DNA from: Patescibacteria group bacterium | GTDB lineage: Bacteria; Patescibacteriota; Patescibacteriia; XYB2-FULL-38-15 | Reading direction: 5' to 3' | Length of the DNA: 64,000 nt | Assembly: GCA_041650995.1 (NCBI GenBank) | Contig: JBAZJZ010000001.1 | Span: 363,302 to 427,301 of the forward strand | Position numbers and translations under genes: made by a program | The notes under the pieces: model-generated | What the model was told of the DNA's origin: nothing | What the model saw: the letters and a program-made list of their open reading frames with translations, nothing else | The model's database searches: none | Shown here: positions 5,471-58,045 of the stretch, in pieces | Layout of the letters: each line of letters starts with the position of its first letter | Numbering within the stretch: position 1 is the stretch's first letter

Positions 5471-6154
5471 TTATTTCACTCCTAAATTATTTACCATCAC
5501 GATTTTTTTACCTTCTAAAATATTATATAAAAACTTGTCCGTAATATCTTTGCGATATTTAAATTCCTGGCGGCTCATCAGGGTATAATTAATTTCCCGA
5601 CCAAAATCTTTTTCGAAACCTTTAATTAAGCAAGCCACCTTCCGCCGATTAAACCGGCCCACCAAAAGCAAGTCCACGGAAATACCTGGCATGCCGACAA
5701 ACTGACCGGCTAAAACCAAATAATCCACGCTCCCGGCACGGCTAACGGCTTTAACAAAATTCTTTTCCAACAAAAAATCCGCTTTTAAGAGTAATGCTTT
5801 AAGTTCCGGAAATAAAATAAAACCGCTGTTTGCCTGAAAAAATTTCTTTACGACGTCCTTATTTTTAACTTTTTTAAATTTTCCGGAAAATTTTTTTTGA
5901 CTATCGACTTTGGGAACCAGATAACTTTCCTTCGGGGCTTCCACCTCTAAAATTATTCCCAAATCTTTTAAATTTAAAAGCTCTCGACGGACGGAATTAA
6001 TTTGAGAATTGATCGCTCTCGCGATTTCTCTCACGAAAAACATCTTCTCCGCGCTGTTCAAAAATAACTTTAATAATTTGACCCTGGTCTTTGAACCAAA
6101 TAGTTGTTCAAGGCCGGAACTGCGGCTGTTTTGATGTCTTTTTTTAGTCGCCAT
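5471..6154 (-). CDS. putative winged-helix transcriptional regulator with C-terminal nucleotidyltransferase-like region
   Basis: N-terminal HTH-like segment (VREIARAINSQINSVRRELLNL); otherwise unassigned. Confidence 0.35.
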   Translation of the reverse strand: MATKKRHQNSRSSGLEQLFGSKTRVKLLKLFLNSAEKMFFVREIARAINSQINSVRRELLNLKDLGIILEVEAPKESYLVPKVDSQKKFSGKFKKVKNKDVVKKFFQANSGFILFPELKALLLKADFLLEKNFVKAVSRAGSVDYLVLAGQFVGMPGISVDLLLVGRFNRRKVACLIKGFEKDFGREINYTLMSRQEFKYRKDITDKFLYNILEGKKIVMVNNLGVK

Positions 6155-6243
6155 AGATTACCCCTATAATCTTTACTTTAATCCTAAAAAACATTATACT
6201 TATTATAATACATAAAAGCCAAAAAGAAAAGCCATTAAACCAA

Positions 6244-8598
6244 ATGTCTAGAATTGAATATAGCCAATTAATCACTGACTCTGGAAACGGAAAGTCCATT
6301 TCCAAGAGTTTTGTTTTTGATTTGCCTGAAAAAGAAGAAGCTGCGTTAGATAAGCCGGAGACGGCCGCGCCAAGGCGGGCTTCCGGCCAAATTTTCGGCA
6401 TGATTGAAATTGAAGCGCCGTCGAGCAAAAAATCATTATCTTTTCTCGATGTTTTAATCAGCGAAATCAAGGAGGCCGCGGCGGGAAGTTTTGGAAAACC
6501 GGGACAAAAAACGCCCGAGGAAATTTTTGAAAATTTTATCCAAAAAACAAACTACCGTTATCTGGAGTTGGTAAGCAATAAATCTTCGGCCGCTTTTCTT
6601 GATGAAGAGACGGACGGCTTGCCGAAAATAAATGCCATACTCTCCTTTTTAGATGAAAAAAATCTTCATCTCGCGGGCCGGGGAAAAATGCTACCATTTT
6701 TAATTTATGAAGTAAAGCAGGGAAATTTCCGAATCATGGACATCACGGAAACCGCCACGGGCAAAGAAGCGCGATCAAGCAAACTTAGCCTCTTCACCAA
6801 TATTGTCAGCGGAAAAATCGGCGCGAATGATTATCTCTTTTTTACAACTGAGAGTATCTTGGATTATTTTTCTTTAGAAAAAATTTGTAAAACCGTTTCC
6901 GCGGCAACTCCGGAAGCGGCGAAAGAAACCTTAAAAAATTTGCTCGGAGAAACAGCTAACCCCGGAACATCTTTTGCTTTCATGGTTATAAAACTCCGGA
7001 CAGAACTTCCGGTAATAAAAGCAACTTTATCCCCCGCCCCGGCCGCGAGCTCCGACAACAGGGAAACGACTTCTCCGCAAAATTCTATGGATGGCTTGCT
7101 CAAAACCGCAGCCGACACGGAAAAAATGTTAACTCCGTCACTTGGTTTAAATATCGGCGGCGGATTTTTCTCATTCCTCGGCGGCCTGAAAAATATTTTT
7201 AGAAAAAATGAAATAAAATCTAACGCCCGGCTTGAATATTATTCTTCCCAGTTCCATCCCCCAACAAGCATCAATAAATTTTTTAGATCAATTTCTCTCA
7301 TTCTTTTGGCAATCCTTCGCATTCCTTACTTTTTGATCAGAATAATTTTTTCATTTCTCTTCAATCTCCTTAAAATTATTTTCTATTCAATCACAAACTG
7401 GAAGGGGCAAAGGAAGACGGCCTTTGCAAACGCCGCCGAAAGTTTCCAAAAAAGCTGGTCAGCTATTTTACCCAAAACAGAAAAACTTCCCAAACTTTCC
7501 AAAACCCTTCTGGTTTTTGCCGTAATTTGCGTCACTCTTTTTGTCGGCAGCACCGCTTTTCTTTATTTTAAATATCAAAAAGATGTTGCCACAAAGGCGC
7601 TTCAAGAAAAAGTTGAGGTTGTCCAAAATAAAAAAAGTTCTGCCGAAGCCAGCTTAATTTACAACGACGAAACTGGAGCGAGAACTGTCTTAACTGAAAT
7701 CGACGCGCTTTTATCCGCTTTTCCACAAAAAACAAAAGATGAAAAAAAGGCCTACCAAAATCTCCTCGCGGAAACAGAAAAACTTCGAGAAAAATTAAGG
7801 CATGTCGAAAAAATTGAAAATCCCGTTGCGGTAGCTAATTTCCCGAGTTTTAATCCCGACGCGGCAGTGGAGAATTTTATCGTCACTAATAATAATATTT
7901 ATGCTTTTGATCGCTCAGCTTCGGTTATTTACAAAATAAATTTACAAAATAATGAAGTAGCGAATAAAAGCGTTTCCGGTCTTAATTTCCAGATCGTTTT
8001 TATGGAAAAAGATGATTCGGCTTTTCTTTATGAATCGGGGGAAAAATTCTTTAAACTTGACTTGAAAGAAGATATTTTAAAAGAGCTTGAAGTGGTAATG
8101 GCAAGCAATGAAACAGAAATCCAAGATCTCGCGGTTTATAACCAAAAACTTTATGTTTTGGATCCGCGCGACGGACAAATTTTCAAACATTTAGCGACCC
8201 CGACGGGATTTGGCGGCGGCACAAACTGGCTTCGCGAAACAGTAGATATTAGCAAAGCTAAAAGCCTAGCCATCGACGGCGCTATTTATCTTGGAACGAC
8301 AGACGGAAAAATTTTAGAATTTGCCAACGGCCAACAAACAGAATTTTCAGTTGAAGTTGATCCTACTCTTTCTTCTGAAATAAAAATCTGGACTTCGACC
8401 GAATCTTCATTCCTCTATGTTTTAGAGCCGCAAGCTAAACGTCTTATTGTTTTGGACAAACAAGGAAAATTGATCATCCAATATTTTTCAGAAAAATTTG
8501 ATAATTTAAAAAATTTAGCAGTCAGAGAAAAAGAAAAGAAAATCTATTTGCTTTCCGGCGATTTTGTTTACGAAATTACCGCTACTCATTTGCAATAA
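6244..8598 (+). CDS. large hypothetical protein (784 aa) with central TM helices
   Basis: long ORF with typical low-GC codon usage; no confident motif. Confidence 0.45.
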   Translation: MSRIEYSQLITDSGNGKSISKSFVFDLPEKEEAALDKPETAAPRRASGQIFGMIEIEAPSSKKSLSFLDVLISEIKEAAAGSFGKPGQKTPEEIFENFIQKTNYRYLELVSNKSSAAFLDEETDGLPKINAILSFLDEKNLHLAGRGKMLPFLIYEVKQGNFRIMDITETATGKEARSSKLSLFTNIVSGKIGANDYLFFTTESILDYFSLEKICKTVSAATPEAAKETLKNLLGETANPGTSFAFMVIKLRTELPVIKATLSPAPAASSDNRETTSPQNSMDGLLKTAADTEKMLTPSLGLNIGGGFFSFLGGLKNIFRKNEIKSNARLEYYSSQFHPPTSINKFFRSISLILLAILRIPYFLIRIIFSFLFNLLKIIFYSITNWKGQRKTAFANAAESFQKSWSAILPKTEKLPKLSKTLLVFAVICVTLFVGSTAFLYFKYQKDVATKALQEKVEVVQNKKSSAEASLIYNDETGARTVLTEIDALLSAFPQKTKDEKKAYQNLLAETEKLREKLRHVEKIENPVAVANFPSFNPDAAVENFIVTNNNIYAFDRSASVIYKINLQNNEVANKSVSGLNFQIVFMEKDDSAFLYESGEKFFKLDLKEDILKELEVVMASNETEIQDLAVYNQKLYVLDPRDGQIFKHLATPTGFGGGTNWLRETVDISKAKSLAIDGAIYLGTTDGKILEFANGQQTEFSVEVDPTLSSEIKIWTSTESSFLYVLEPQAKRLIVLDKQGKLIIQYFSEKFDNLKNLAVREKEKKIYLLSGDFVYEITATHLQ

Positions 8599-8716: not shown

Positions 8717-9124
8717 TTACTTTAAGGTAACTTTGGCGCCAGCGGTTTCTAATTTCTTTTTCATCTCTTCCGCTTCGGCTTTGCCTACGCCTTCTTTCAC
8801 GACTTTCGGTGCGCCATCAACCAAGTCTTTCGCGTCTTTCAAACCCATCTGGGTCAATTCGCGAACCGCTTTAATCACGCCGATTTTATTGGCGCCGGAA
8901 TCAGTCAATTCCACGTTGAAAACGGTTTGTTCTTCAGCCGGGGCTGCTCCCGCGGCTGGGGCTCCTGCGGCCACGGCCATTACTGGCGCAGCGGCGGAAA
9001 CTCCAAACTTCTCTTCCAAAACTTTTACCAGTTCGGCTAAATCCAAAACTGATAATTTCTCAATCTGCTCGACAAGCGCCTTAAATTTTTCCGGCACTTG
9101 CACTTCTTTTGTTTCATCTGCCAT
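8717..9124 (-). CDS. rplL: 50S ribosomal protein L7/L12
   Basis: Ala-rich hinge and conserved C-terminal domain ([21 protein letters not shown]). Confidence 0.9.
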
Positions 9125-9688: not shown

Positions 9689-9857
9689 ATTGATAAGAAA
9701 TTATATAAATAAAAAACTGTGGGATTACCACAGAACACGAATGAAAAACCGAAAAATCACGGTTTTTACCTCGGCAGGAAATTAAGCCCCGCCTAAGCGG
9801 GACGCCTGCTGTCTTTGGTAATTTATTTATACTACAACATCCCCCAAAACCTGTCAA
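9689..9857 (-). promoter_or_regulatory. rplJ promoter (TTGACA-17-TAGTAT) and structured L10 leader with attenuator-like hairpins
   Basis: TTGACA at 9857-9852 on the minus strand; leader has cagcagg..cctgccg, aaaaccg..cggtttt and ctgtgg..cccacag+T-run hairpins. Confidence 0.35.
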
Positions 9858-9882
9858 GTTTAATTTGTCCACAGGACTTTCT

Positions 9883-9918
9883 AATAAAAAAGCCCGCCAT
9901 CCAGAGTGAATGACGGGC
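9883..9918 (-). terminator. terminator of GC-rich cassette G1
   Basis: gcccgtc...ggcgggc stem followed by TTTTTTATT on the minus strand. Confidence 0.45.
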
Positions 9919-9953
9919 AGAGACGGGCGTCCTAGACCGAGCGAATCCCGAGC

Positions 9954-10568
9954 CTAGAACTTCCGGCAGGAGGCCGAACCGTGATTCGGAAGAGCGCTAC
10001 CGCCCCAGCGCCAATCAAGCACGGTCCGACCGCTGATCACACGAAGACAGGCCACATCCTCGCGCTGCTTACGACGAACGGAACCCGGCAGGTCCATGAC
10101 GTGGCCGTCGCGGCGCGTGGTGTCGCTCACAACCTCGGGGTACTGGATGTAGGCCGAAACGGCTTCGAGCACCGTGAGGCCGAGTTCGTTCTTTGCGAAG
10201 TTGTGGCGACAGTCGACCACCGAACGGTTCCGGTTTTGACGGCCATCCTGCATCCGAATCCAAAAGGGAACTTCTGGATTACTGTGCAGAGCGTTCCACA
10301 ATTCGAAGGTTTTGTCGCTGCCGTCGAAGTCGATGTTGCCGCAAGCGCAGAGCCTCTTGAGCGGCAGCCGCGACTCCACGAGCACGAGGAGCGGAAAATC
10401 CTTGTCCGGAAGACGAAGCTGCGGAGGAATCTTGGGAATGGTCGCGAGGTACTTCTCGAAACTCGGAAAATCGAGCTCATGGCCGATGCCCGGCTCGCTG
10501 TTTCTCAAACGCGCCGTCTGGATCTCGTGCAGTTGGGCCACGTGGCCAAGATCGAAAAGGTCTCCCAT
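9954..10568 (-). CDS. G1: GC-rich cassette protein of unknown function (about 204 aa)
   Basis: AGGAGAAAAAAG-ATG Shine-Dalgarno; third-codon-position GC very high on the minus strand; own promoter and terminator. Confidence 0.5.
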   Translation of the reverse strand: MGDLFDLGHVAQLHEIQTARLRNSEPGIGHELDFPSFEKYLATIPKIPPQLRLPDKDFPLLVLVESRLPLKRLCACGNIDFDGSDKTFELWNALHSNPEVPFWIRMQDGRQNRNRSVVDCRHNFAKNELGLTVLEAVSAYIQYPEVVSDTTRRDGHVMDLPGSVRRKQREDVACLRVISGRTVLDWRWGGSALPNHGSASCRKF

Positions 10569-10621
10569 CTTTTTTCTCCTTCCATCCCGCGGCAGTTCCG
10601 GAGACAGCGCTTTGGCCATAA

Positions 10622-10703
10622 CCGGAATAAACCGAAGGACAGCTCGTCGCCGAACCCATTCCGGCGAACATTTTATTATTGTCTGTTTAAACAAAAAAGT
10701 CAA
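10622..10703 (-). promoter_or_regulatory. G1 promoter (TTGACT-17-AATAAT) and GC-rich hairpin leader
   Basis: minus-strand TTGACT at 10703-10698 and AATAAT at 10680-10675; ccggaat..attccgg hairpin at 10622-10664. Confidence 0.4.
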
Positions 10704-14362: not shown

Positions 14363-14386
14363 GAGGCGAGGAAAAGGAGGTATTTT

Positions 14387-14758
14387 ATGGCCCAATCAGC
14401 GCGACCGGAGACTCCCAGACTGTATCGCCTCACGATTCGCCGCCCATCATCCGATCCAAAGACGCCAGAACTCATGGACATCGTCAGCGAAGCGTTTCTG
14501 TTCACCAAGCCGGACGGATTCCCCATGACCGAAGCCATCGCCAAACAGAGAGCCACGAGAGTCCAGGAAACACTGCCGCCGGGCTGGGAAGCCAAGGTCA
14601 CGGAAGAGCCCTTCCTTGTCACGCATGGCACGCCGGCAATCGTCGGCACCTGCCGACGCGCGACTTGCCAGAATTTCGGCATTGGGGCTCCAAATCGCTT
14701 CCGCTGCCCCGAGTGCGGCGAGCTGACCGCGATCGAGATGGTCGCAACCGTAGAGTAG
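14387..14758 (+). CDS. G2: GC-rich cassette protein (123 aa) with C-terminal Cys4 zinc-ribbon
   Basis: AAAAGGAGG-N6-ATG; C..C...C..C at the C-terminus; high GC at third codon position. Confidence 0.55.
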   Translation: MAQSARPETPRLYRLTIRRPSSDPKTPELMDIVSEAFLFTKPDGFPMTEAIAKQRATRVQETLPPGWEAKVTEEPFLVTHGTPAIVGTCRRATCQNFGIGAPNRFRCPECGELTAIEMVATVE

Positions 14759-14766
14759 CGACTTCA

Positions 14767-14821
14767 CCCGAACCGATTGACTGAGTTTAGGATAACTCTC
14801 CATCGGCTCGGGTATTTTTTA
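14767..14821 (+). terminator. G2 terminator
   Basis: cccgaaccgattg...catcggctcggg stem followed by a T-run. Confidence 0.5.
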
Positions 14822-19956: not shown

Positions 19957-20400
19957 ATGGAAGACGGAACGATGCTGCTCGACAGGGAAAAGCGGAAAGC
20001 GGAAATTGGCGGACGCCTCCAAGAATACGAGCGGGAAAATCCCGAAATCTGGCGAGTCATCCTCAGGGTTTTCAGAGTAGAAACGACCTACTCCAAATAT
20101 GATTTCCTGGAGGCAATGTGGTCATTGTTCGAAGGTCTGCGAATGGTCACAGAACTGCTCGGACAACTACCACTGATCCCGGCCGAGTCAGCCGAAAGGG
20201 TCTGGACCGAACTGCACGAAGCGCCTTCCGACGTGCTAAACAGCGAGGACTTCGACCGTTTTCGCTGCATCATCGAGTTTGGTTTCAGGACAGCGCTAAA
20301 TGCAGTAGTCCGGTCACCTGACATCAAGAAGCGGACCGAACGCATCTTCGCCATGATTCTCCGGATGGTTCAAATCGAACTGGACCGAAAACCAGACTGA
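19957..20400 (+). CDS. G3: GC-rich cassette protein, helical, unknown function (147 aa)
   Basis: GGAAAGGAGGGG-N5-ATG; high GC at third codon position. Confidence 0.55.
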   Translation: MEDGTMLLDREKRKAEIGGRLQEYERENPEIWRVILRVFRVETTYSKYDFLEAMWSLFEGLRMVTELLGQLPLIPAESAERVWTELHEAPSDVLNSEDFDRFRCIIEFGFRTALNAVVRSPDIKKRTERIFAMILRMVQIELDRKPD

Positions 20401-20415
20401 AAAGGGAGGAATAGC

Positions 20416-20458
20416 AAAGAGGCACCGACACGGCAAGCCTCTTTTTTTATTTTTTTAT
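20416..20458 (+). terminator. G3 terminator
   Basis: aagaggc...gcctctt stem followed by a T-run. Confidence 0.55.
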
Positions 20459-20465
20459 TTTACCC

Positions 20466-20494
20466 TTGACAAAAAATAAAAATTAAATTAAGAT
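20466..20494 (+). promoter_or_regulatory. G4 promoter (TTGACAAAA-17-TAAGAT)
   Basis: consensus -35 hexamer, 17-bp spacer. Confidence 0.45.
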
Positions 20495-20521
20495 TCATTG
20501 TTCCCCGGAAAGGAGAATTCC

Positions 20522-20995
20522 ATGGAAACCACGAGCGCCGACAAGCGCCAAAATCCCGTTCAAAATCAGTTTGAGCGTCTGGTCGCTGCCTTGCGGATGG
20601 AAGAATCCGCCGTGGCCGACTGGCTCGAGGAAACGCGGGACGACTTGGCCGGTATTTTCGGCGAGACGGAACTTGCCCTGGCCTGGGAAAACATCTCTTT
20701 TCTCTCCTACATCTGGGTGATGCTCGGCACGATCGAAAAGATGAGGGAGAAGGGCCGGTTGCCCACGATCACCGTCAACTCCTACCTACAAGCCACTCGC
20801 GAGTGGAACGACCGGGAAATCCGCGCTCAACTGGAGTGTGAGATCCTCAAGGCCATGCAGACGTTCCAACGCGAATCTTACGAAGACTTCGAAACTCTCC
20901 TCAGCGGTTCTCCTTCCGAGAACCAGAGGGCAGAAAGCTGTTGCCGCGGGAAGCTAGCAAAGCTCCTGCGTTTGGTCAGACTCTCTCAGCAGTAA
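20522..20995 (+). CDS. G4: GC-rich cassette protein, helical, unknown function (157 aa)
   Basis: AAAGGAGAA-N4-ATG; start METTSADKR. Confidence 0.55.
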   Translation: METTSADKRQNPVQNQFERLVAALRMEESAVADWLEETRDDLAGIFGETELALAWENISFLSYIWVMLGTIEKMREKGRLPTITVNSYLQATREWNDREIRAQLECEILKAMQTFQRESYEDFETLLSGSPSENQRAESCCRGKLAKLLRLVRLSQQ

Positions 20996-36828: not shown

Positions 36829-37014
36829 ATTATATCAAAAAATTAAAATTAAAACAAAGCCCCCGAGTGATGCCCGGAGTGACACGCTTTAGCGTGTTAC
36901 TTACCGAAATAACAGCCTAAAGGCTGTCAGTCCGATTTATTAAAAATAAAAAAATGCCCCGTTCCATTTCTTCGGCTTTGTGAAAGCTTCAGATTTGAAA
37001 CGGGGCCAAGAGAC
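36829..37014. repeat. conserved structured flank, copy 1 (G5 terminator hairpins plus outward TGATATAAT promoter)
   Basis: about 80% identical to 56973-57176; three hairpins; extended -10 on the minus strand at 36837-36829. Confidence 0.7.
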
Positions 37015-37080
37015 CGAAAGTCCAAGGATCCGAGTGACCCGGCCTTTTTGAAGGGCCGAGTTACCCAGGATCCAAGGACC

Positions 37081-37542
37081 CTACTTGCGACGGAGCACCC
37101 GGAAGCCGCCGCCCCAGTCGTAGCCGAGCCAGCGCCAGTCCTGGCACCAGCCGTCGTCGTGCCAGCGGACGCACGCCACGAGCCCGCGGTCGACCGGGAA
37201 CCGCCAGTCCGGGAAGACGAAGACGACCTTGCCGCGGAGAGCGGCAGGGACCTCGTCCTGGTGGGCGAGGAGGAACTCGCAGTCCTCCTTGCCGAGGTTG
37301 GCGCCGAGCCTCTCGGCGCGGGCGACCATCACGCGGCCGACCACCGAGGTCTCGCCCTCCCAGAGGAAGGAGAGGATCTCGTAGGTGCGGCCGCCGATGG
37401 TCATCTCGGTGGGGAGGGAGGACTTGACGAGCGTCTCGGCGAACTCCCGCACCGCCTCGGTGTTGTCCGAGGAGACGAGTGCCGAGAACAGTTCGTCGCC
37501 GATCTCGCGCTGCAGATGGGCCGTAGAACGCAGAGTATCCAT
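37081..37542 (-). CDS. G5: GC-rich cassette protein, paralog of G8 (153 aa)
   Basis: shared block LPTEMT.GGRTYEILSFL...LGKEDCEF.LAHQDE.PAALRGK.VFVFPD with G8. Confidence 0.55.
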   Translation of the reverse strand: MDTLRSTAHLQREIGDELFSALVSSDNTEAVREFAETLVKSSLPTEMTIGGRTYEILSFLWEGETSVVGRVMVARAERLGANLGKEDCEFLLAHQDEVPAALRGKVVFVFPDWRFPVDRGLVACVRWHDDGWCQDWRWLGYDWGGGFRVLRRK

Positions 37543-37784
37543 TGCCGTTTCCTTTTGCCTCCTCTTTCGAGAAAGCGCACTCCTCGCCGACCTGGCAAAG
37601 AGGAAGCGCCGGTTTCCCAGCCTTCTTTCCAAATTTTATTATTCTTCGAGCGGAACGGAGCGAAGTCGAGAAGCGGTTCTCGACACCCCGCCGAATTGGC
37701 GGGTTGCTCGAACAATAAAATAGAGAAAGAAAACCGGGAAATTAACCAAAATTTCGCTTAAAAAGAACTATTTACTAACAATTA

Positions 37785-38710: not shown

Positions 38711-38844
38711 TATAGCACTTTTTAAAGGGTATGAAAAACTGTATAATTTAATCAGGATTATGGCCTGAGCCTGTCGAAGGCCAACTTATCAATAGCACCC
38801 CCTTCGACTTCGCTACGCTTCGCTCAGGGAATAAATGGATATAT

Positions 38845-47379: not shown

Positions 47380-47581
47380 AAGTTTTCCTTTTCGCCTCTG
47401 TTTTGCCAAAACTTGCGGGTCCCGCCAGGGCGGGATCAGGAACAAGTTTTTAAGAGCAAAACATGTGGGATTATTTAAATTTAAGATTTTAGATTGTAGA
47501 TTGTAGATTTAAAACAAAAATCCATAACCCATAATCTATAATCCATTCTCGCACAAAACTAAAAATCGCGCAAGGGTTTAA

Positions 47582-47633
47582 TAAAAAAACGCCCTGCCGA
47601 GCCAAGCGTCGAAACACTTGACCTCGGCAGGGC
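47582..47633 (-). terminator. G6 terminator
   Basis: gccctgccgag...ctcggcagggc stem; T-run on the minus strand. Confidence 0.55.
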
Positions 47634-47639
47634 TGAAGG

Positions 47640-48332
47640 TCAGGGCCCGTCGTGACCGTAGACCCTGAAGCGCTCACCGGTCTCCGGCCGTTCGTAGGCC
47701 AGATACCAGGAGACGCCCACGCTGAGCGGATCCTCGCCCGGACGACGTGAACGTGTCGCGTCCACCTCACCGAGCATCAGATCCGTCGGTCGGACCTCCT
47801 CCTTGCGACGCGACGGGAGAAGGAGAATCTCCTCGCGCTTGAGTGCGGTCGGCAGCATGGGTGAGGTGTAGTAGAAGTCGCCCTGGGCCGTCACGTAGAT
47901 CTTGAGCGGCCAGAGCGACTCGCCGCCGTCGTGCGTCCGCAGAACCTTGATCTTGCGAACCAGGTGATCGGTCGGCTGAACCTGATCCATCGGACGGCCC
48001 GGCCGCGGACAGAGTCTGTCCCACTCATCGTCCGAGAGAGGGACATCACAGAAGAAGTTCGGGCAGACACCCAGGATAAGCGGACTGCCGCAGTTCCTAC
48101 AGCGTTCCGGCGTACCACCACAGGTGTGCAGCATCACGCCCCCGCCGATGACGATCTGGCTGGCCTGACACTGAACGTACCGAGCCACCTTGACCACTCG
48201 TACGAAGGGCTCCACGCACTCATTGCCGTAGATGCTGTTCTGGAACAGCACCCGGGCGTAGTGGGCCATGACGCGCCTCTCGGCCGCGAAGCAGCCGACG
48301 CAGATCTCGTTCTGGCTCATCTTCTCCTCCAT
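47640..48332 (-). CDS. G6: GC-rich cassette protein, Cys-rich (multiple CxxC zinc-ribbon-like pairs), 230 aa
   Basis: CVGC..C..C, CGGTPERCRNCG, CPNFFC; high GC at third codon position. Confidence 0.5.
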   Translation of the reverse strand: MEEKMSQNEICVGCFAAERRVMAHYARVLFQNSIYGNECVEPFVRVVKVARYVQCQASQIVIGGGVMLHTCGGTPERCRNCGSPLILGVCPNFFCDVPLSDDEWDRLCPRPGRPMDQVQPTDHLVRKIKVLRTHDGGESLWPLKIYVTAQGDFYYTSPMLPTALKREEILLLPSRRKEEVRPTDLMLGEVDATRSRRPGEDPLSVGVSWYLAYERPETGERFRVYGHDGP

Positions 48333-48380
48333 CCTCTGGCTGTTCCTCAGCCAAGGTCCAAGTCCATCTTGGAACTTATA

Positions 48381-48598: not shown

Positions 48599-49033
48599 TT
48601 GTTCATCAAAAATATGAACCCGCTACAAACGGAAAAATCAAACGACAAAATCTGGAGGCAACTTTCCAATCTCTGGACTTTCGCAGCCATGGGATTTTTC
48701 ATGTTTGATTTTTTCACGAACGATAAATACAGCGGATACGCCGCGGCGATCTCAATTATTTACATTTCTATTCTCGGCCTTTACGCCGGAACCAAAGAAT
48801 TTGACCGCTGGCAAGATTCTCATTTTTCAAAACGCAAAGGCGAATTATTTGTTATTCTCTGGACAATTTTAATTTTTTTCTTTATCATTACCGCGATTGT
48901 CTCCGGCGGAAAATACAAAATGCCATCGGAATTCACGGCGACCTACATCGCGCTTTTATCCATTTTCGCCTTGACACAAAGGTCTAAATTCCTGCATAAT
49001 CAAAAAGAGAAAGATATTAATCAAAAACAATAA
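48599..49033 (+). CDS. hypothetical membrane protein
   Basis: four TM helices. Confidence 0.4.
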   Translation: MFIKNMNPLQTEKSNDKIWRQLSNLWTFAAMGFFMFDFFTNDKYSGYAAAISIIYISILGLYAGTKEFDRWQDSHFSKRKGELFVILWTILIFFFIITAIVSGGKYKMPSEFTATYIALLSIFALTQRSKFLHNQKEKDINQKQ

Positions 49034-49042
49034 TCAATAATT

Positions 49043-49300
49043 ATGAAAAAAGACATCCACCCTGAATATTATCCAAAAGCAAAAGTAACCTGCGCCTGCG
49101 GCAATGCTTTTACTGTTGGCTCAACCGTGAAAGAAATTAAAGTTGAGTTGTGTTCTGCCTGCCATCCGTTCTACACCGGCAAACAGAAACTTGTTGACTC
49201 AGCGAGACGCGTAGAAAAATTCAAAGAAAAAATGGAAAAAAAGGCGGCTATTTCCGCGACGAAAAAAGAAAAGAAGCCGAGAGCGAAAAAAACCAAGTAG
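49043..49300 (+). CDS. rpmE: 50S ribosomal protein L31
   Basis: MKKDIHPEY...C.C...C..C...FYTGKQ. Confidence 0.85.
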
Positions 49301-49376
49301 CTATTCCAATCATAAAAAACATGGTAACGTTTTTGTTATCATGTTTTTATGTTAGAATAAACTAATAATTTAATTT

Positions 49377-50414
49377 ATGATTCCTGAAATCACTAAAACC
49401 GAAGAAAGATTTAAGGAACTCGAGGCCGAACTTGCCCGCCCCGAGGTGGTTTCCAATCCGGAAAAATTAAAAACCGTTTCCCGAGAATACAGTGACTTAA
49501 AAGAAGTTATGGAAAAAATAAATAAATTTCATAAATTGAAAAAGGCCGAATTGGAAACAGAGGTTATCGCCAAACAGGACGTCGACGAGATGGCGGCCAT
49601 CGCTAAAGAAGAATTAGAAAAAATTCGGCGGGAAAAATCAACGCTTGAAACGGAAATTAAAGAAGAATTAACGCCGAAAGATCCGCTGGACAAAAGAAAT
49701 ATTATCGTGGAAATTCGGGCCGGCGCCGGCGGCGATGAAGCCGCTCTTTTTGCCGCGCAATTATTCAGAATGTATTCGCGCTTCGCCGAGCGCAAAGGCT
49801 GGCAGACAAAATTGATTTCCGCAAACCGGACAGACCTCGGCGGATTCAAAGAAATTATTTTTTCAGTTGAGGGAAAAGGCGCTTGGGGAAATTTAAAATT
49901 TGAAAGCGGCGTGCACCGCGTTCAGCGCGTTCCGGAAACGGAAAAAAGCGGACGAGTCCATACTTCAACCGCCTCTGTCGCCGTTCTTCCAGAAGCCGAA
50001 GAAATTGATATAAAAATTGAACCAAAAGATTTAAGAATTGATACGTTTTTATCCGGCGGCCACGGCGGTCAAAGCGTGCAGACAACTTATTCGGCCGTGC
50101 GTATTACTCATATTCCGACCGGTCTTGTTGTCGCCTGCCAAGACGAACGCTCACAGGCGCAAAATAAAGAAAAAGCCATGCAGGTTTTGCGTTCCCGGCT
50201 TTTTGTAATGGAGCAGGAAAAACGGCAAGCGGCGGAAGTCGCGGCGCGACGTTCGCAAATCGGTTCGGCCATGCGGGCGGAAAAAATCAGAACATATAAT
50301 TTTCCCCAGGACCGCGTTTCCGATCATCGCGTTAAAGAAAGCTGGCACAATATTAATAATGTTATGGATGGCGAACTGGATCAAATTATTGAAGTGTTGA
50401 AAAAGGAAGTGTAA
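49377..50414 (+). CDS. prfA: peptide chain release factor 1
   Basis: GGQ motif; RVQRVPETE (PxT-type, RF1-like); followed by prmC. Confidence 0.8.
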
Positions 50415-50437
50415 AAAATAATAAATATAATAAAAAA

Positions 50438-50462
50438 ACCGGCCGCAAGGCCGGTTTTTTGT
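50438..50462 (+). terminator. prfA terminator
   Basis: accggccgcaaggccggt followed by a T-run. Confidence 0.65.
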
Positions 50463-50469
50463 ATAGAAC

Positions 50470-50547
50470 TTGACAAATTAATCTTTTTATAATATTCTAA
50501 AAACATCAAACAGGGTGGCCTTTCGTTTTTGGCGCGCGCCGAAAACG
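50470..50547 (+). promoter_or_regulatory. G7 promoter (TTGACAAAT.. with TATAAT/TATTCT) and leader hairpin cgtttttggcgcgcgccgaaaacg
   Basis: -35 at 50470-50475; perfect palindrome at 50524-50547. Confidence 0.4.
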
Positions 50548-50622
50548 TGAAGGAAGGTGGCCCTAAATCTCGGCCCGACGGACGGGACGAGTTAAAATAG
50601 GGAAGGTTGAGGAGGATAGGGA

Positions 50623-50832
50623 ATGTTGAATCCGATTTGGGTCGACGGAATACGCCTCGTCGACGACAATGGCCAACCGCTTTGGGCGGATCGTGGCCCC
50701 ATCGAAATTTCGTCGAGGCGACCGCATCAGCCCGGTGGCGAAGGGAATGACGACATGTTCTTCCCGGACGACGAAGAAGCGGCCAGGCGGCGAAGCGACG
50801 CCCGGAAGAGAGACCGTCGGCGCCAGCAGTAG
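50623..50832 (+). CDS. G7: GC-rich small cassette protein (69 aa), acidic then Arg-rich tail
   Basis: GAGGAGGATAGGGA-ATG Shine-Dalgarno; followed by about 150 nt GC-rich untranslated region and a terminator. Confidence 0.4.
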   Translation: MLNPIWVDGIRLVDDNGQPLWADRGPIEISSRRPHQPGGEGNDDMFFPDDEEAARRRSDARKRDRRRQQ

Positions 50833-50987
50833 TATCCCGTCCCACCATCAACGTGAGAGCTGCGAGCTTCGCTCGCCCACTCTCCGTTTCAAGTTCGCGC
50901 CCCCCCTCCCGGAAGCGGCGCGAAGCCCGCGTAGCGGAAAACGGGGAACACGAGTTCCCCGCCCCCCCCTCCTCGCTACCGGGCCCC

Positions 50988-51050
50988 AGCCCGTGGATTG
51001 TTTTGGAGAGATCTCCCCTCCTTCAAGCAGTCCACGGGCTCCTTTTTTTA
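50988..51050 (+). terminator. G7 terminator
   Basis: agcccgtgga...tccacgggct stem followed by a T-run. Confidence 0.5.
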
Positions 51051-51065
51051 TGCTACAATAATCGC

Positions 51066-51950
51066 ATGACAATAAAACAATCTCTCATTTTGGCGACAAA
51101 AATTTTACAAAAAAATAAACTATCCTCCCCTGCTCTGGACGCCGAAGTCCTCCTATCTTTTGTTATAAAAAAACAAAAAGAATTTTTGTACGCACATTCT
51201 GAAAAAAAATTAACCGCGGCGCAATTTTTAAAATTTAAAAAACTGATCGCCCGGCGTTCTAAACATGAGCCTATCGCCTACATCATTGACCACAAATTTT
51301 TCTACGGCCTGAATTTTTTTGTTGATAAAAATGTTTTAATCCCCCGCCCGGAAACGGAAACACTAGTTGAAACTGTAATCGATAAAAATCCAACTGCAGT
51401 CGTTGACGTGGGAACCGGCAGCGGCGTTATTGCCATCTCACTCGCTTATCATCTACCCAAAACGAAAATTTTTGCCACGGAAATTTCGCCGTCCGCGGCC
51501 AAAATTGCGCAAAAAAATATTCTTCATCATAAAGTCACCATTACTTTGCTTCGCGGAAATCTTCTTGAACCTTTTTTAAAAAATTTAAAATCAAAAATAA
51601 AAAACTTAAAATCTTTAATCGTTGTCGCCAATCTCCCCTATCTCAAAACTCGTCAATGGAAAAAAACTCTGCCAGAAATAAAAAAATATGAGCCACGGCA
51701 AGCTCTGGACGGCGGTGAAGATGGTTTGAATTATTACCGCGAACTTTTACAGCAAATCGAATTACTAATTACCGATTACCAATTACCAATTACTTCAATC
51801 TTCGAAATTGATCCATCTCAAAAAAAAACCATTGCGAAATTGGTCAACTGCCGCTTCCCTGCCGCGAAAATTGAAATAAAAAAAGACCTCGCCGGCCGAG
51901 ATCGGGTTGTTATATTTAAAATAAATCCCAAAAAACAATCAATTACTTAA
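51066..51950 (+). CDS. prmC: release factor glutamine methyltransferase PrmC/HemK
   Basis: VGTGSG SAM motif, NLPY (NPPY-type) motif, C-terminal DLAGRDRV; start at MTIKQ after the G7 terminator. Confidence 0.75.
   Translation: MTIKQSLILATKILQKNKLSSPALDAEVLLSFVIKKQKEFLYAHSEKKLTAAQFLKFKKLIARRSKHEPIAYIIDHKFFYGLNFFVDKNVLIPRPETETLVETVIDKNPTAVVDVGTGSGVIAISLAYHLPKTKIFATEISPSAAKIAQKNILHHKVTITLLRGNLLEPFLKNLKSKIKNLKSLIVVANLPYLKTRQWKKTLPEIKKYEPRQALDGGEDGLNYYRELLQQIELLITDYQLPITSIFEIDPSQKKTIAKLVNCRFPAAKIEIKKDLAGRDRVVIFKINPKKQSIT
51759..51793 (+). repeat. five tandem heptamers (NAATTAC) inside the prmC coding sequence
   Basis: gaattac taattac cgattac caattac caattac. Confidence 0.8.
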
Positions 51951-52007
51951 TTACTATTTACCAATTACTGAAATCTGCAAATGGTAATTAGTAACTGGTA
52001 ATTACGG
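51939..52007. repeat. CAATTAC/GTAATTA heptamer repeats arranged as an inverted repeat in the convergent spacer
   Basis: caattacttaattac...tggtaattagtaactggtaattac. Confidence 0.7.
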
Positions 52008-52017
52008 CACTTAAAAA

Positions 52018-53118
52018 TTAAAACTCCACTTCAGTATTTATCGGCACCACTTCAACCCAGGTCACTCCCGGGTTGAATTTTATTTCCGCGCCTGTTGCGT
52101 CATAAAATCTCGTCCGCTCACCACGCGCATCTTTTCTCCAAGTTCCATCAATCCGAATTCCATCCTGAAAAATAATTGCCTCGCCACTACCAATCGTATC
52201 AATTTTTTTTCGACCAACATCATCTAAAACCACCATTTTAGTAAACTGCACAATAATATTTTTTGCCCGAACTTCCTCGCCATTTCTGTCTTGCTGGATT
52301 GCTCCCGCTTGATATCTCAAATAGTCATTTGTCTCGCGATCATACTGCCAACCGGCTTCGTAAGTTTTCGTGGAAAAATAAATTTTAACTCTTTTTTCTT
52401 CATCGGGTCGCGACTCTTCGGGTATTTCATTCTTAAACTGCCATGGCGTAAAATTTTTCACTTCACCATTTTTCGCCGTAAAAGCTTCATTTAATAATTC
52501 TGTTGAAGTGTAAAGATTGTGCGGCGCATATCTTGATTTTGATCGCCAAAAGAATCTGCCGTAAGCGAATTCATTCAAATCCAAAATGTCATATTGCGGA
52601 ATTAACCTCAGCGCTTCAGGACTGCCGCCGGAATGGACATAAAGCGTGCCAAACTCCTCCGCCCAATCAAGAAAATATGGCCGCGCGCTTCGAACTGGAC
52701 CGATTTCCGGGACATCGCTATCTGCTGTGTAAATTGCGAGCAATCTTGTAATCCCCGCTTCGGCTAAAGTTTCGTAAACCAAATTAGCGCCCGAGACTCC
52801 CGAAAGCGGCCGGGCGTCAATCATGTTTTCAATTTGCACGGCAAAAAGCGCGGGATTAATTTTTATTTCTTCGTCCACTTCCACTCCATCAACCAATCGA
52901 CGAAACCCAGGAAGAGATACTTCTTTATTTTCTTCATTGCTTTGCTCCGCCCTCGCCCGAGAAAAAAAATCCAAAAAAGAAGTCCTGGACAAAAGCAAAT
53001 AGCCGCCGCCGACCACCACAAAAACTGAAATTAAAAGCAAAGAAACAACCAGCCAAATACGCGGTTGTTTCTTCACAAAAACAATTATTTTTGAGAATAA
53101 TTCCTTTATTAACTTCAT
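52018..53118 (-). CDS. DUF3048 (YerB-like) secreted/anchored protein
   Basis: N-terminal TM anchor; architecture and length as in DUF3048. Confidence 0.45.
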   Translation of the reverse strand: MKLIKELFSKIIVFVKKQPRIWLVVSLLLISVFVVVGGGYLLLSRTSFLDFFSRARAEQSNEENKEVSLPGFRRLVDGVEVDEEIKINPALFAVQIENMIDARPLSGVSGANLVYETLAEAGITRLLAIYTADSDVPEIGPVRSARPYFLDWAEEFGTLYVHSGGSPEALRLIPQYDILDLNEFAYGRFFWRSKSRYAPHNLYTSTELLNEAFTAKNGEVKNFTPWQFKNEIPEESRPDEEKRVKIYFSTKTYEAGWQYDRETNDYLRYQAGAIQQDRNGEEVRAKNIIVQFTKMVVLDDVGRKKIDTIGSGEAIIFQDGIRIDGTWRKDARGERTRFYDATGAEIKFNPGVTWVEVVPINTEVEF

Positions 53119-57176: not shown

Positions 57177-57189
57177 GAACCTTCTGTCT

Positions 57190-57250
57190 GTCATTCCCGC
57201 GAAAGCGGGAATCCAGATTACTGGATCCCCGGGTTAAACCCGAGGACGAC
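57190..57250. mobile_element. MITE-like double-hairpin repeat, copy B
   Basis: GTCATTCCCGCGAAAGCGGGAATCCAG-ATTA-CTGGATCCCCGGGTTAAACCCGAGGACGAC. Confidence 0.65.
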
Positions 57251-57264
57251 ATTGAGGTTGTGGG

Positions 57265-57789
57265 CTACGCGGCTTTGCGACGGAGCACCCGAGCGCCGTC
57301 GTCCCAGCCGACGTCGAGCCAGCCCCAGTACTGGTACCAGCGGTCGCCGCGCCAGCGGAGGTACGCCACGCACTCGCGGCCGACGGGGTACCGCATGTCC
57401 GGGAAAACGAAGACGATCTTGCCGCGGAGTGCGGCGGGAATCTCGTCCTGGTGGGCGAGGATGAACTCGCAGTCCTCCTTGCCGAGGTAGGCGCCGAGCT
57501 TCTCGGCGCGGGCGACCATGGTGTGGCCGTGGACGCGCTCCTCGCCCTCCCGGAGAAAGGAGAGGATCTCGTAGGTGCGGCCGCCGACCGTCATTTCGGT
57601 GGGGAGTTCCAGCTCCGTGGGCTTCGCGGGCTGCCTCGCGATGAGTGCGCCATCGAGCGTCGTGGCCAACAAATCCTGATGCAGAATCCAAAATTGGGCC
57701 AACTCCGGCTCCATGTCCCGCGGCAGAGAGCGCAGCACTGCCGCACCGAGTTCCGCAAACTGATCCGTTCCGAGTTTCTTCTTTCCCAT
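57265..57789 (-). CDS. G8: GC-rich cassette protein, paralog of G5 (174 aa)
   Basis: AAGGAGGAAGCG-ATG; conserved block shared with G5. Confidence 0.55.
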   Translation of the reverse strand: MGKKKLGTDQFAELGAAVLRSLPRDMEPELAQFWILHQDLLATTLDGALIARQPAKPTELELPTEMTVGGRTYEILSFLREGEERVHGHTMVARAEKLGAYLGKEDCEFILAHQDEIPAALRGKIVFVFPDMRYPVGRECVAYLRWRGDRWYQYWGWLDVGWDDGARVLRRKAA

Positions 57790-58045
57790 CGCTTCCTCCT
57801 TGGCTTATCCTGGTTCATCTCTTTAGGAGAGGCAGGACTTAAGGAGAGGCAGGACTTACCAAAAGCGGCTGGAACCCTTTCCCAGCCTTGTTTTGATTGT
57901 GCTCCCCTCTTAAGATAAGAGGGGCTGGGGGCGTTATGAATCTTTGTTTTTAAATCTACAACTCATAACCCCTCTTAATCTCCCCTTACCTTAAGGGGAG
58001 AAACCAGAGCACTGCCAAAAGAAAGGTAGAAACTTCCAACGTTTC

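Follow-up and report, generated by a model that had tools for sequence, protein, structure and literature searches.

In the 64-kb window (the whole stretch of patescibacterial DNA analysed here), the genes for peptide chain release factor 1 (prfA) and release-factor glutamine methyltransferase (prmC) are separated by 651 nt. Among 69 loci of more distantly related Patescibacteria the median is 71 nt; the gap there is mostly 2–150 nt and does not exceed 150 nt in 59 of them. This raises the question of what the enlarged spacer contains and how prmC is expressed behind it. The initial annotation, which had called for this comparison of spacers, described a G+C-rich cassette inserted between the two genes, and its features were all found in place, small corrections aside. 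Taken as a whole, the observations are best explained, with a probability of about 0.6, by an acquired autonomous unit that encodes a small protein within a conserved RNA frame, is presumably under post-transcriptional control and is followed by a leaderless prmC.

Organization of the prfA–prmC spacer

The upstream flank is formed by prfA (49377–50414, + strand), a 345-amino acid ORF with the Pfam domains PCRF and RF-1, which is 88–94% identical to prfA of Falkowbacteria MAGs; near-whole or whole-length matches underlie these values across the clade. Downstream lies prmC (51066–51950, + strand), and the core genes in the neighbourhood of the cassette further include rpmE and rplY. The terminator reported behind prfA corresponds to a bidirectional intrinsic terminator (50433–50460, no strand assigned) with a 12-bp perfect hairpin (AAAAAACCGGCC/GGCCGGTTTTTT) and U runs on either side. 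What follows is a self-contained unit, as had been proposed, with promoter, leader, reading frame, long 3′ UTR and terminator; positions 50470–51049 probably constitute one autonomous transcription unit bounded by a predicted promoter and a predicted terminator. The region 50513–51060 has 61% G+C against 41.6% window-wide, the cassette differs in G+C (0.62) from its flanks (0.37–0.46), and the folding z-scores of the cassette region are −4.9 for the + strand and −4.1 for the − strand. A wider pattern of G+C-rich, self-contained orphan genes between A+T-rich core genes is suggested for this genome; a leader common to the other G+C-rich islands of the window was looked for and not found.

The predicted promoter is of the sigma-70 type (50470–50498, + strand) and matches the consensus at 10 of 12 positions. 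The TTGACA element that had been noted earlier occupies 50470–50475 and is followed, after a spacer of 17 nt, by TATTCT (50493–50498); TTGACAAATT and the −10 region are kept in all 19 homologous loci. Transcription would start near 50505, giving a structured 5′ leader of 118 nt (50505–50622) that comprises a long hairpin P1 (50512–50564), a hairpin P2 with a GGA loop (50569–50591) and a purine-rich ribosome-binding region, in which a strong Shine-Dalgarno sequence, GAGGAGGA (50609–50616), lies 7 nt upstream of the ATG. The palindrome reported for the leader is present within P1 (50524–50547) but is not perfect, as a G·T occupies one position, which gives G·U in the RNA of the + strand. The reading frame for the 69-amino acid protein G7 (50623–50832, + strand) is followed by a C-rich, structured 3′ UTR (50833–51049; 64% G+C, 40% C). 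The G+C-rich untranslated stretch and terminator described in the annotation are thus present, although the length is about 217 nt instead of about 150 nt. The 3′ UTR is predicted to fold into the hairpins H1 (50850–50888), H2 (50894–50924) and H3 (50925–50984) and a terminator hairpin (50988–51040), and transcription would end at the U7 run that follows (51043–51049).

The encoded protein

Comparison of G7 with its 84%-identical orthologue from locus L083 gave a dN/dS of 0.16, with third codon positions accounting for 19 of the 31 differences, whereas the other five frames of the same region gave values of 0.3–2.8 or contained stops. Orthologues of this type, called class A here, have 67–72 amino acids (L083–L086, L088–L091, L003, L004 and L096) and include eight distinct sequences with conserved motifs; the ATG and the Shine-Dalgarno sequence are aligned and invariant in all homologous loci. 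The GC3 of the ORF is 0.70 as compared to 0.34–0.45 in the flanking genes. Judged by its substitution pattern, 50623–50832 is a genuine protein-coding gene, on which purifying selection acts in the ORF frame and in no other.

This bears on the view that the unit is a non-coding riboregulator and the 69-amino acid ORF a chance frame in G+C-rich RNA. The ORF is indeed less conserved than the UTRs (see below), the folding z-scores are strong, several frames give long ORFs in such G+C-rich DNA, and the sources holding the G7 protein do not include NCBI. However, a low dN/dS confined to the ORF frame and the predominance of third-position differences speak against a chance frame, as does the retention of ORF, ATG and Shine-Dalgarno sequence in eight orthologues that are divergent yet share conserved residues, and where the ORF has been lost its place is taken by another intact ORF and not by non-coding sequence. 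We consider a purely non-coding unit very unlikely. The earlier suggestion that the RNA is the functional part holds insofar as leader and 3′ UTR are conserved and show compensatory changes, but the ORF is no by-product.

G7 is hydrophilic and highly charged and has no hydrophobic segment. In an AlphaFold2 model of modest confidence (pLDDT 69), an N-terminal β segment, a disordered acidic middle part and a basic C-terminal helix are predicted. Searches of Pfam, PHROGs and PADLOC with G7, with the class B proteins described below, with the product of a neighbouring cassette (cassette 3) and with all proteins of the islands gave nothing above threshold, and neither Foldseek with the AlphaFold2 model nor PDB sequence profiles revealed a significant match in the PDB. 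A search of 5.8 billion proteins found a single orthologue besides the protein of the window itself, and a profile search of 1.84 billion representatives added two true relatives. Giant Ig-repeat proteins, which also came up as candidate relatives, were rejected as summed repeat noise. G7 is a clade-restricted, fast-evolving small protein, and its ORF is the fastest-evolving part of the cassette.

The initial annotation also considered a toxin-like small protein. A type I toxin-antitoxin system or another locus for a small toxic peptide would agree with the small ORF, the long structured 5′ UTR and a secondary structure able to hide the Shine-Dalgarno sequence. The character of G7 and the lack of a PADLOC match do not fit such a function, however, and the consensus fold of the leader leaves the Shine-Dalgarno sequence predicted open. 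Furthermore, nothing promoter-like was seen in convergent or antisense orientation, and a scan of the DNA sequence from 49000 to 52200 gave no such site for the minus strand. A toxin locus is hardly to be expected here.

Conservation and structure of the leader and 3′ UTR

Among close relatives, nucleotide identity is 79–87% for the leader and 74–87% for the 3′ UTR, as compared to 84–86% for prfA, 72–77% for prmC and 58–69% for the ORF. By this measure the 3′ UTR is conserved on a par with prfA itself, and both leader and 3′ UTR are better conserved than the encoded protein.

The covariance analysis of the RNA proposed in the annotation supported the leader structure but led to no Rfam family. 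In 13 distinct leader sequences the consensus structure has 24 base pairs with 99% of the cells paired, and compensatory changes occur in 7 of the 24 pairs; none of 500 shuffles reached the observed values, and slid controls gave 26–46%. The G·U pairs in the leader are compatible with the + strand alone. Invariant segments, among them those containing GGUGGCC, are found in single-stranded as well as helical parts. A covariance model of the leader (R1) matched 19 loci with 87–147 bits, with exactly one copy per locus, including a single one in the window, and gave no other matches. The effective sequence number of this model is 1.2, and part of the apparent conservation reflects shared ancestry because the sequences are closely related. 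Rfam contains no match to leader or 3′ UTR at the gathering score in the window and six relatives, nor at relaxed thresholds of E ≤ 10 for 50380–51100 and E ≤ 0.05 for five homologous loci. The sole Rfam match in the window is an L10 leader at 9701–9836; a group-II D1D4 match (19.7 bits, E 0.11) was dismissed as weak.

In the 3′ UTR, H1 is conserved with compensatory changes in 2 of 9 pairs, and the terminator hairpin is conserved with such changes in 9 of 17 pairs. UCCCC and CCUCC tracts are located in the predicted loops, and these C-tracts are predicted to be mostly unpaired in all of 11 homologues, the probability of being unpaired commonly reaching 0.55–0.9.

Distribution and replacement of the reading frame

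All 19 loci with the leader are prfA–prmC neighbourhoods of a single Falkowbacteria clade, and the R1 model gave no match in about 75 Patescibacteria that are more remote (L007–L082). The insertion that had been ascribed to this genome is therefore not peculiar to it. An ancestor of the Falkowbacteria clade would have gained the unit within its prfA–prmC spacer.

If the cassette were a moron carried by a prophage, or had recently entered this one genome with a mobile element or by horizontal transfer, its anomalous G+C content would be explained, and the behaviour of neighbouring cassettes, which come and go between near-identical strains, would be in line with this. Nevertheless, the position is the same in the 19 clade loci at a prfA identity of 88–94%, and core genes lie on both sides. 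Inspection of the cassette ends revealed no terminal inverted or direct repeats and no target duplication, there is no transposase or integrase among the adjoining genes, and neither PHROGs nor the IMG/VR viral contigs yielded a match, the latter having been searched for the leader and for relatives of one island protein. A recent mobile origin is, in our view, highly improbable. Gain and loss of neighbouring cassettes is illustrated by L083 and L084, which encode the same G7 protein whereas cassette 3 occurs in L083 only.

In six loci, the slot of the ORF holds an unrelated zinc-ribbon-like ORF of 87–99 amino acids (class B). The most direct comparison is between L095 (class B) and L004 (class A): the leaders are 96% and the 3′ UTRs 84% identical, while the ORFs are unrelated, and hhalign gave a probability of only 0.2% for homology between the two classes. 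The break points of the swap lie within a few nucleotides of the ATG and, just past the stop codon, at CCCACCAACAACGTGAGAG (CCCACCAACAACGUGAGAG). Since the UTRs are kept while the ORF is replaced, they must be selected for a function of their own and be read by something besides the encoded protein.

The latter point also concerns the notion that the leader is an autoregulatory site for the encoded basic protein, as in the leaders of ribosomal-protein operons. Both ORF classes indeed have Arg/Lys-rich C-terminal tails, and the invariant single-stranded and helical segments of the leader suggest recognition by a protein. Because a 96%-identical leader precedes two unrelated proteins, the encoded protein is, however, unlikely to be the specific ligand of the leader, which leaves autoregulation of this type as a rather unlikely option.

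The UTR frame thus appears to act like an expression slot for small ORFs, and homologous recombination within the conserved UTRs would be the simpler explanation for the exchange. A more far-reaching and speculative proposal, which we would call possible but doubtful, is that leader and 3′ UTR form a dedicated slot in which recombination in the UTRs swaps small ORFs, as a chromosomal moron-like exchange in CPR bacteria, that the other islands work alike, and that the 3′ UTR is an anti-Shine-Dalgarno riboregulator.

Start and expression of prmC

The start of prmC at ATG 51066, for which the annotation saw no Shine-Dalgarno sequence, was confirmed. A predicted extended −10 promoter, TGCTACAAT (51051–51059, + strand), is located 6 nt upstream of this ATG. 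Comparison of the window with L003, L004/L088, L084, L086, L089, L090, L091, L096 and L009 showed that the arrangement of a TG(C/T)TA(C/T)AAT box, six variable nucleotides and the ATG is conserved irrespective of the sequence further upstream. The absence of a Shine-Dalgarno sequence is explained by this conserved TGnTAYAAT box, which prmC has of its own so close to its ATG that the mRNA is probably leaderless. The insertion was expected to break the coupling of prfA and prmC; the genes are indeed separated, but the loss is offset by the box in front of prmC. With two predicted terminators between it and prfA, prmC would be transcribed from this extended −10 element into a leaderless mRNA.

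A longer ORF (50853–51950) had been pointed out as a possible real prmC, in which the G+C-rich stretch 50853–51065 would encode an N-terminal extension. The frame is open from GTG 50853 to 51950, but the Pfam domains PrmC_N and MTS align only from residue 78 onwards, which places the beginning of PrmC_N in the product of ATG 51066, and the stretch holds the conserved terminator hairpin, the U7 run and the −10 box. In tblastn searches with the window's prmC, alignments extend to residue 1 in relatives, which have the prmC ATG at the same position, preceded by different, non-coding DNA of terminator or promoter type. The chance that the stretch is part of prmC is practically negligible.

Possible regulation by the UTRs

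Most likely, the conserved frame would serve to control the small ORF post-transcriptionally. Its 5′ leader would bind a host factor and/or stabilise the mRNA, and the C-rich, anti-Shine-Dalgarno-like loops of the 3′ UTR would pair with G-rich ribosome-binding sites, either that of the same mRNA, as described for icaR, or those of other mRNAs, as for RsaE/RoxS (see below). When the full transcripts of 10 homologues were folded, pairing between the Shine-Dalgarno sequence and the 3′ UTR was predicted for only 6. The energies of such duplexes are, however, −26.7 kcal/mol for cognate pairs, −26.7 kcal/mol for non-cognate pairs and −26.6 kcal/mol for shuffled 3′ UTRs, and no co-evolution was detected; the pairing potential therefore reflects composition only.

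The main product of the unit could also be the 3′ UTR itself (50850–51049), acting as a C-rich trans-acting sRNA that masks G-rich ribosome-binding sites of other mRNAs, with the ORF as a passenger in a dual-function mRNA. All 11 homologues have kept the looped C-rich tracts, the 3′ UTR survives the ORF swap, and its design is similar to that of RsaE/RoxS (PMC6158497, PMC5419742); CsrA and Hfq were both absent from the 64-kb window, which says little about the whole genome. On the other hand, there is no promoter-like A+T-rich stretch from the stop codon to H1, Rfam gives no match to RsaE or any other family, the pairing potential is purely compositional and the targets are only presumed. We regard an sRNA as the main product as unlikely, though worth bearing in mind, and favour the acquired protein-coding unit with its own UTR frame.

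Significance and comparison with known systems

The genomes of CPR bacteria (Patescibacteria) are small and rich in unannotated short genes, and their post-transcriptional regulation is almost wholly unknown; a literature search on structured RNAs and on G+C-rich cassettes of CPR bacteria yielded nothing relevant. On the present sequence comparisons, the locus adds a clade-specific small-protein family, with NCBI not among its sources, and two candidate RNA motifs that have covariation support and are absent from Rfam. The occurrence of one UTR frame with two unrelated ORFs in near-identical backgrounds is a natural experiment, which shows that selection acts on the UTRs themselves. The locus is also a worked example of a core gene pair, prfA–prmC, that has been uncoupled, with prmC re-equipped with a probable leaderless promoter.

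Similar to integron cassettes and to allelic 'idiomorph' loci, unrelated ORFs share a slot between conserved flanks with sharp break points. Unlike integron cassettes, which are promoterless, the unit carries a consensus promoter; there is no integrase among the neighbouring genes, and no attC-like site was apparent. Phage morons are inserts between conserved genes that form transcription units of their own (PMC3594210). The cassette resembles these in that a single small gene is enclosed by a predicted promoter and a predicted terminator belonging to the unit, in that relatives have the two flanking genes next to each other, in a composition unlike that of the flanks, and in that units nearby are gained and lost between strains. 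It differs from morons in that it is part of a bacterial chromosome, with core translation genes on both sides, and not of a phage or prophage, lacks PHROG or viral-contig relatives and is vertically kept across a clade, and its long, conserved, structured UTRs fall outside the moron definition.

With respect to the RNA, one parallel is the icaR mRNA of Staphylococcus aureus, in which a UCCCC motif in the 3′ UTR pairs with the Shine-Dalgarno region of the same mRNA (PMC3868564; reviewed in PMC5502269). In an interaction of the icaR type, repression of translation and processing by RNase III depend on this pairing. The cassette likewise has a 3′ UTR of more than 100 nt (217 nt) with C-rich, anti-Shine-Dalgarno-like motifs and a G-rich ribosome-binding region in the 5′ UTR. 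There is no sequence homology to icaR, however; the cassette has several C-loops instead of one motif, and its pairing is no better than that of shuffled or non-cognate sequences. RsaE and RoxS are sRNAs of Firmicutes with C-rich loops (PMC6158497, PMC5419742). In contrast to these, the cassette RNA comes from a different phylum (Patescibacteria), matches no Rfam model and is the 3′ UTR of an mRNA and not an independent gene, whereas it resembles them in having two to four C-rich tracts in hairpin loops, an intrinsic terminator at its end and, by analogy, G-rich ribosome-binding sites as presumed targets.

Organization of the cassette between prfA and prmC

The flagged region lies between prfA (49377-50414), which follows rpmE (49043-49300), and prmC (51066-51950), in a window that is A+T-rich overall (41.6% G+C). 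On the evidence of prfA, the window derives from a metagenome-assembled genome of Candidatus Falkowbacteria (Patescibacteria/CPR), ENA ERZ27247363, contig k141_2401970. By its predicted signals the inserted cassette appears to be an autonomous unit with its own promoter and terminator. In agreement with the initial annotation, prfA is followed by a terminator, a 12-bp perfect bidirectional hairpin at 50433-50460, and then by a promoter-like TTGACA at 50470 with a 17-nt spacer and TATTCT, a promoter predicted from the consensus. The palindrome is found at 50524-50547, but it was called perfect and contains one G·T position. The G7 ORF (50623-50832, + strand, 69 aa) starts 7 nt downstream of GAGGAGGA. 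The G+C-rich untranslated stretch reported behind it is present and ends in a long terminal hairpin with U7, although its length is 217 nt instead of about 150 nt; this 3' UTR (50833-51049) has 64% G+C and 40% C. The RNA of the region folds far more stably than its shuffles on both strands (z-scores -4.9 and -4.1). The leader also contains a direct repeat, AAAACATCAAACAGGGTGGCC (50500-50520) and AAAACGTGAAGGAAGGTGGCC (50542-50562), 42 nt apart, which puts GGUGGCC on both strands of hairpin P1.

G7 represents a new small-protein family

Judged from its substitution pattern, the G7 ORF is a real gene and appears to be translated. Searches of 5.8 billion clustered sequences and 1.84 billion cluster representatives gave only a few relatives, and the sources of the protein do not include NCBI. 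Comparison with a relative of 84% identity reveals 31 differences, of which 18 are synonymous and 13 non-synonymous (dN/dS = 0.16) and 19 lie at third codon positions; the five alternative frames give dN/dS values of 0.3-2.8 or contain stops. The eight distinct orthologues (class A, 67-72 aa) share the pattern DG.RL..DG.P, P..IS.RR, an acidic D.EEE segment and an Arg-rich helix. The AlphaFold2 model (pLDDT 69) has a small N-terminal β segment, a disordered middle part and a C-terminal basic helix. Searches of Pfam, PHROGs and PADLOC and of the sequences and folds in PDB gave no match to G7, which we consider a new small-protein family.

Conserved structured UTRs surround exchangeable ORFs

Sequence comparison of the window with its relatives indicates that the UTRs are the best-conserved segments of the locus. 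Nucleotide identities are 79-87% for the leader (50505-50622) and, among closer relatives, 74-87% for the 3' UTR, as compared to 84-86% for prfA, 72-77% for prmC and 58-69% for the G7 ORF, the closest relative excepted. Both UTRs appear to be structured and under selection. The leader, scored with 13 distinct sequences, folds into hairpins P1, which has three helical segments, and P2, together comprising 24 pairs with 99% of the cells paired and compensatory changes in 7 of the 24 pairs. None of the 500 shuffles matches the observed values, slid controls pair at 26-46%, and the G·U pairs are compatible with the + strand only. In one locus (L005) a different hairpin replaces the P1 apex. The 3' UTR has a conserved hairpin H1 (AACGUGAGAG...CUCUCCGUU) with compensatory changes in 2 of 9 pairs and a conserved terminator with such changes in 9 of 17 pairs. 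Its middle part varies in length, and in 11 of 11 homologues it carries UCCCC/CCUCC tracts in predicted loops, commonly with a predicted unpaired probability of 0.55-0.9. Neither UTR matched Rfam 15; the two are new candidate RNA motifs.

In six loci (L005, L006 and L092-L095) the G7-type leader precedes a different ORF, class B, which encodes 87-99 aa with the motif RRCQEPGCGTILRSGN..C.LH, a zinc-ribbon-like Cys-x4-Cys...Cys-x2-His arrangement and a basic tail. It is unrelated to G7 (hhalign probability 0.2%), with only three relatives in the 5.8-billion-protein collection. Between the class B locus L095 and the class A locus L004 the leaders are 96% and the 3' UTRs 84% identical, with identity lost a few nucleotides 5' of the ATG and regained at CCCACCAACAACGTGAGAG directly 3' of the stop codon. 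Since the same UTRs surround unrelated ORFs, the UTR frame is maintained independently of the ORF that it expresses, and the encoded protein is an unlikely partner of the leader. Such exchange of ORFs is unusual.

Distribution and modularity of the spacer

The insertion is not peculiar to one genome; it is a feature of the clade. Among 69 more distant Patescibacteria, prfA and prmC are separated by a median of 71 nt, and the gap is at most 150 nt in 59; in close relatives (prfA identity 88-94%) it is G+C-rich and spans 0.65-3.1 kb. A leader-derived pattern search added ten metagenome loci, and the leader covariance model detects 19 loci with a single copy each (87-147 bits), all within the prfA-prmC neighbourhood. 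The leader of L096, absent from the training set, scores 117 bits. The model has no match in the more distant loci L007-L082, and within the window it matches only once. The spacer of the clade is modular: L083 and L084 encode identical G7 proteins, and only L083 contains a third cassette.

This third cassette (L083 3455-4130; L003 5704-6306; L006 5689-6324; L093 7719-8285; L096 2030-2533) combines a promoter of its own (TTGACA-17-TAAACT) with a structured leader and encodes a protein of 167-211 aa with an acidic tail. A G+C-rich unit of ~370 nt, absent from the window, separates prfA from the G7 leader in L083 (2500-2860, minus strand), L003, L004, L006, L085 and L093. It has its own terminator and only junk-like ORFs, its divergent TTGACA promoter forms the palindrome AATTTGTCAA-N5-TTGACAAATT with the G7 promoter, and an Rfam search gave no match; it is probably a minus-strand ncRNA. 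A ~63-nt element (ATTATCAAGCGAGTGAGAGAAATGAAC...GCGCAGATAACACGGAGT), located 3' of the G7-type terminator and 5' of the prmC promoter, is tandemly duplicated in L004 (5535-5680) and L088, occurs once in L090 and L091, and is absent from the window. In L093, prs (PRPP synthetase, 5885-6868, ~60% G+C) is located between prfA and the leader, and prmC carries an in-frame G+C-rich insertion (8801-9000); prs is also found in the prfA-prmC neighbourhood of L007 and L096. A 26-nt exact match, GGCCTGAGCCTGTCGAAGGCCCTTCG, between an unrelated place in the window (38757-38782) and a site upstream of prmC in L083 (4159-4184) may be a small dispersed repeat.

The prmC start and its probable promoter

A longer ORF starting at 50853 could have been the true prmC. 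This extension is spurious: PrmC_N aligns only from residue 78 of the ORF, and the stretch before it holds the conserved terminator. The start at 51066 indeed lacks a Shine-Dalgarno (SD) sequence, as noted initially. In ten distinct loci, whatever the upstream context, prmC is preceded by TG(C/T)TA(C/T)AAT, six variable nucleotides and ATG (51051-51066 in the window, with the box exactly 6 nt 5' of the ATG). This spacing fits an extended -10 promoter whose transcripts would begin with the A of the ATG, and a leaderless prmC mRNA is the best explanation for the missing SD sequence.

Other G+C-rich islands in the window

The cassette is one of at least seven islands with 58-66% G+C (9877-10625, 14386-14812, 19957-20995, 36996-37618, 47565-48376, 50513-51060 and 57184-57817). 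Each holds a plausible orphan gene (GC3 0.6-0.9) between A+T-rich core genes, and most have their own TTGACAAA-type promoter and hairpin terminator; the genes have no matches in Pfam, PHROG or PADLOC. Those at 37081-37632 (-) and 57265-57789 (-) are paralogues, with 78% identity over 526 nt and a codon-like substitution pattern. Their family is restricted to Patescibacteria, the 43 named relatives all being 'hypothetical' proteins of Patescibacteria, Falkowbacteria or Parcubacteria. Across the window, only a ribosomal protein L10 leader (9701-9836 (-), 62.7 bits) reaches the gathering score of an Rfam model, and the whole 64 kb contains no tRNA genes.

Possible mechanism and comparison with known systems

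In the leader, segments containing GGUGGCC are invariant, a GGA-type loop is present and the SD sequence is predicted to be open; the leader may be an element for binding or for stability. For the 3' UTR, the C-rich loops could function as anti-SD sequences, either in cis, for which icaR is a precedent (PMC3868564), or in trans, as with the C-rich loops of RsaE/RoxS (PMC6158497, PMC5419742). The composition (36% G in the leader, 40% C in the 3' UTR) agrees with this model, and in full-length folds, pairing between the SD sequence and the 3' UTR is predicted for 6 of 10 homologues. We hold the anti-SD mechanism at low confidence because pairing showed no specificity, with cognate, non-cognate and shuffled duplexes all at about -26.7 kcal/mol.

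Unlike phage morons (PMC3594210), the cassette is chromosomal and no phage link was found. Similar to morons, it carries a promoter and a terminator of its own, is of odd composition and is inserted between genes that are adjacent elsewhere.
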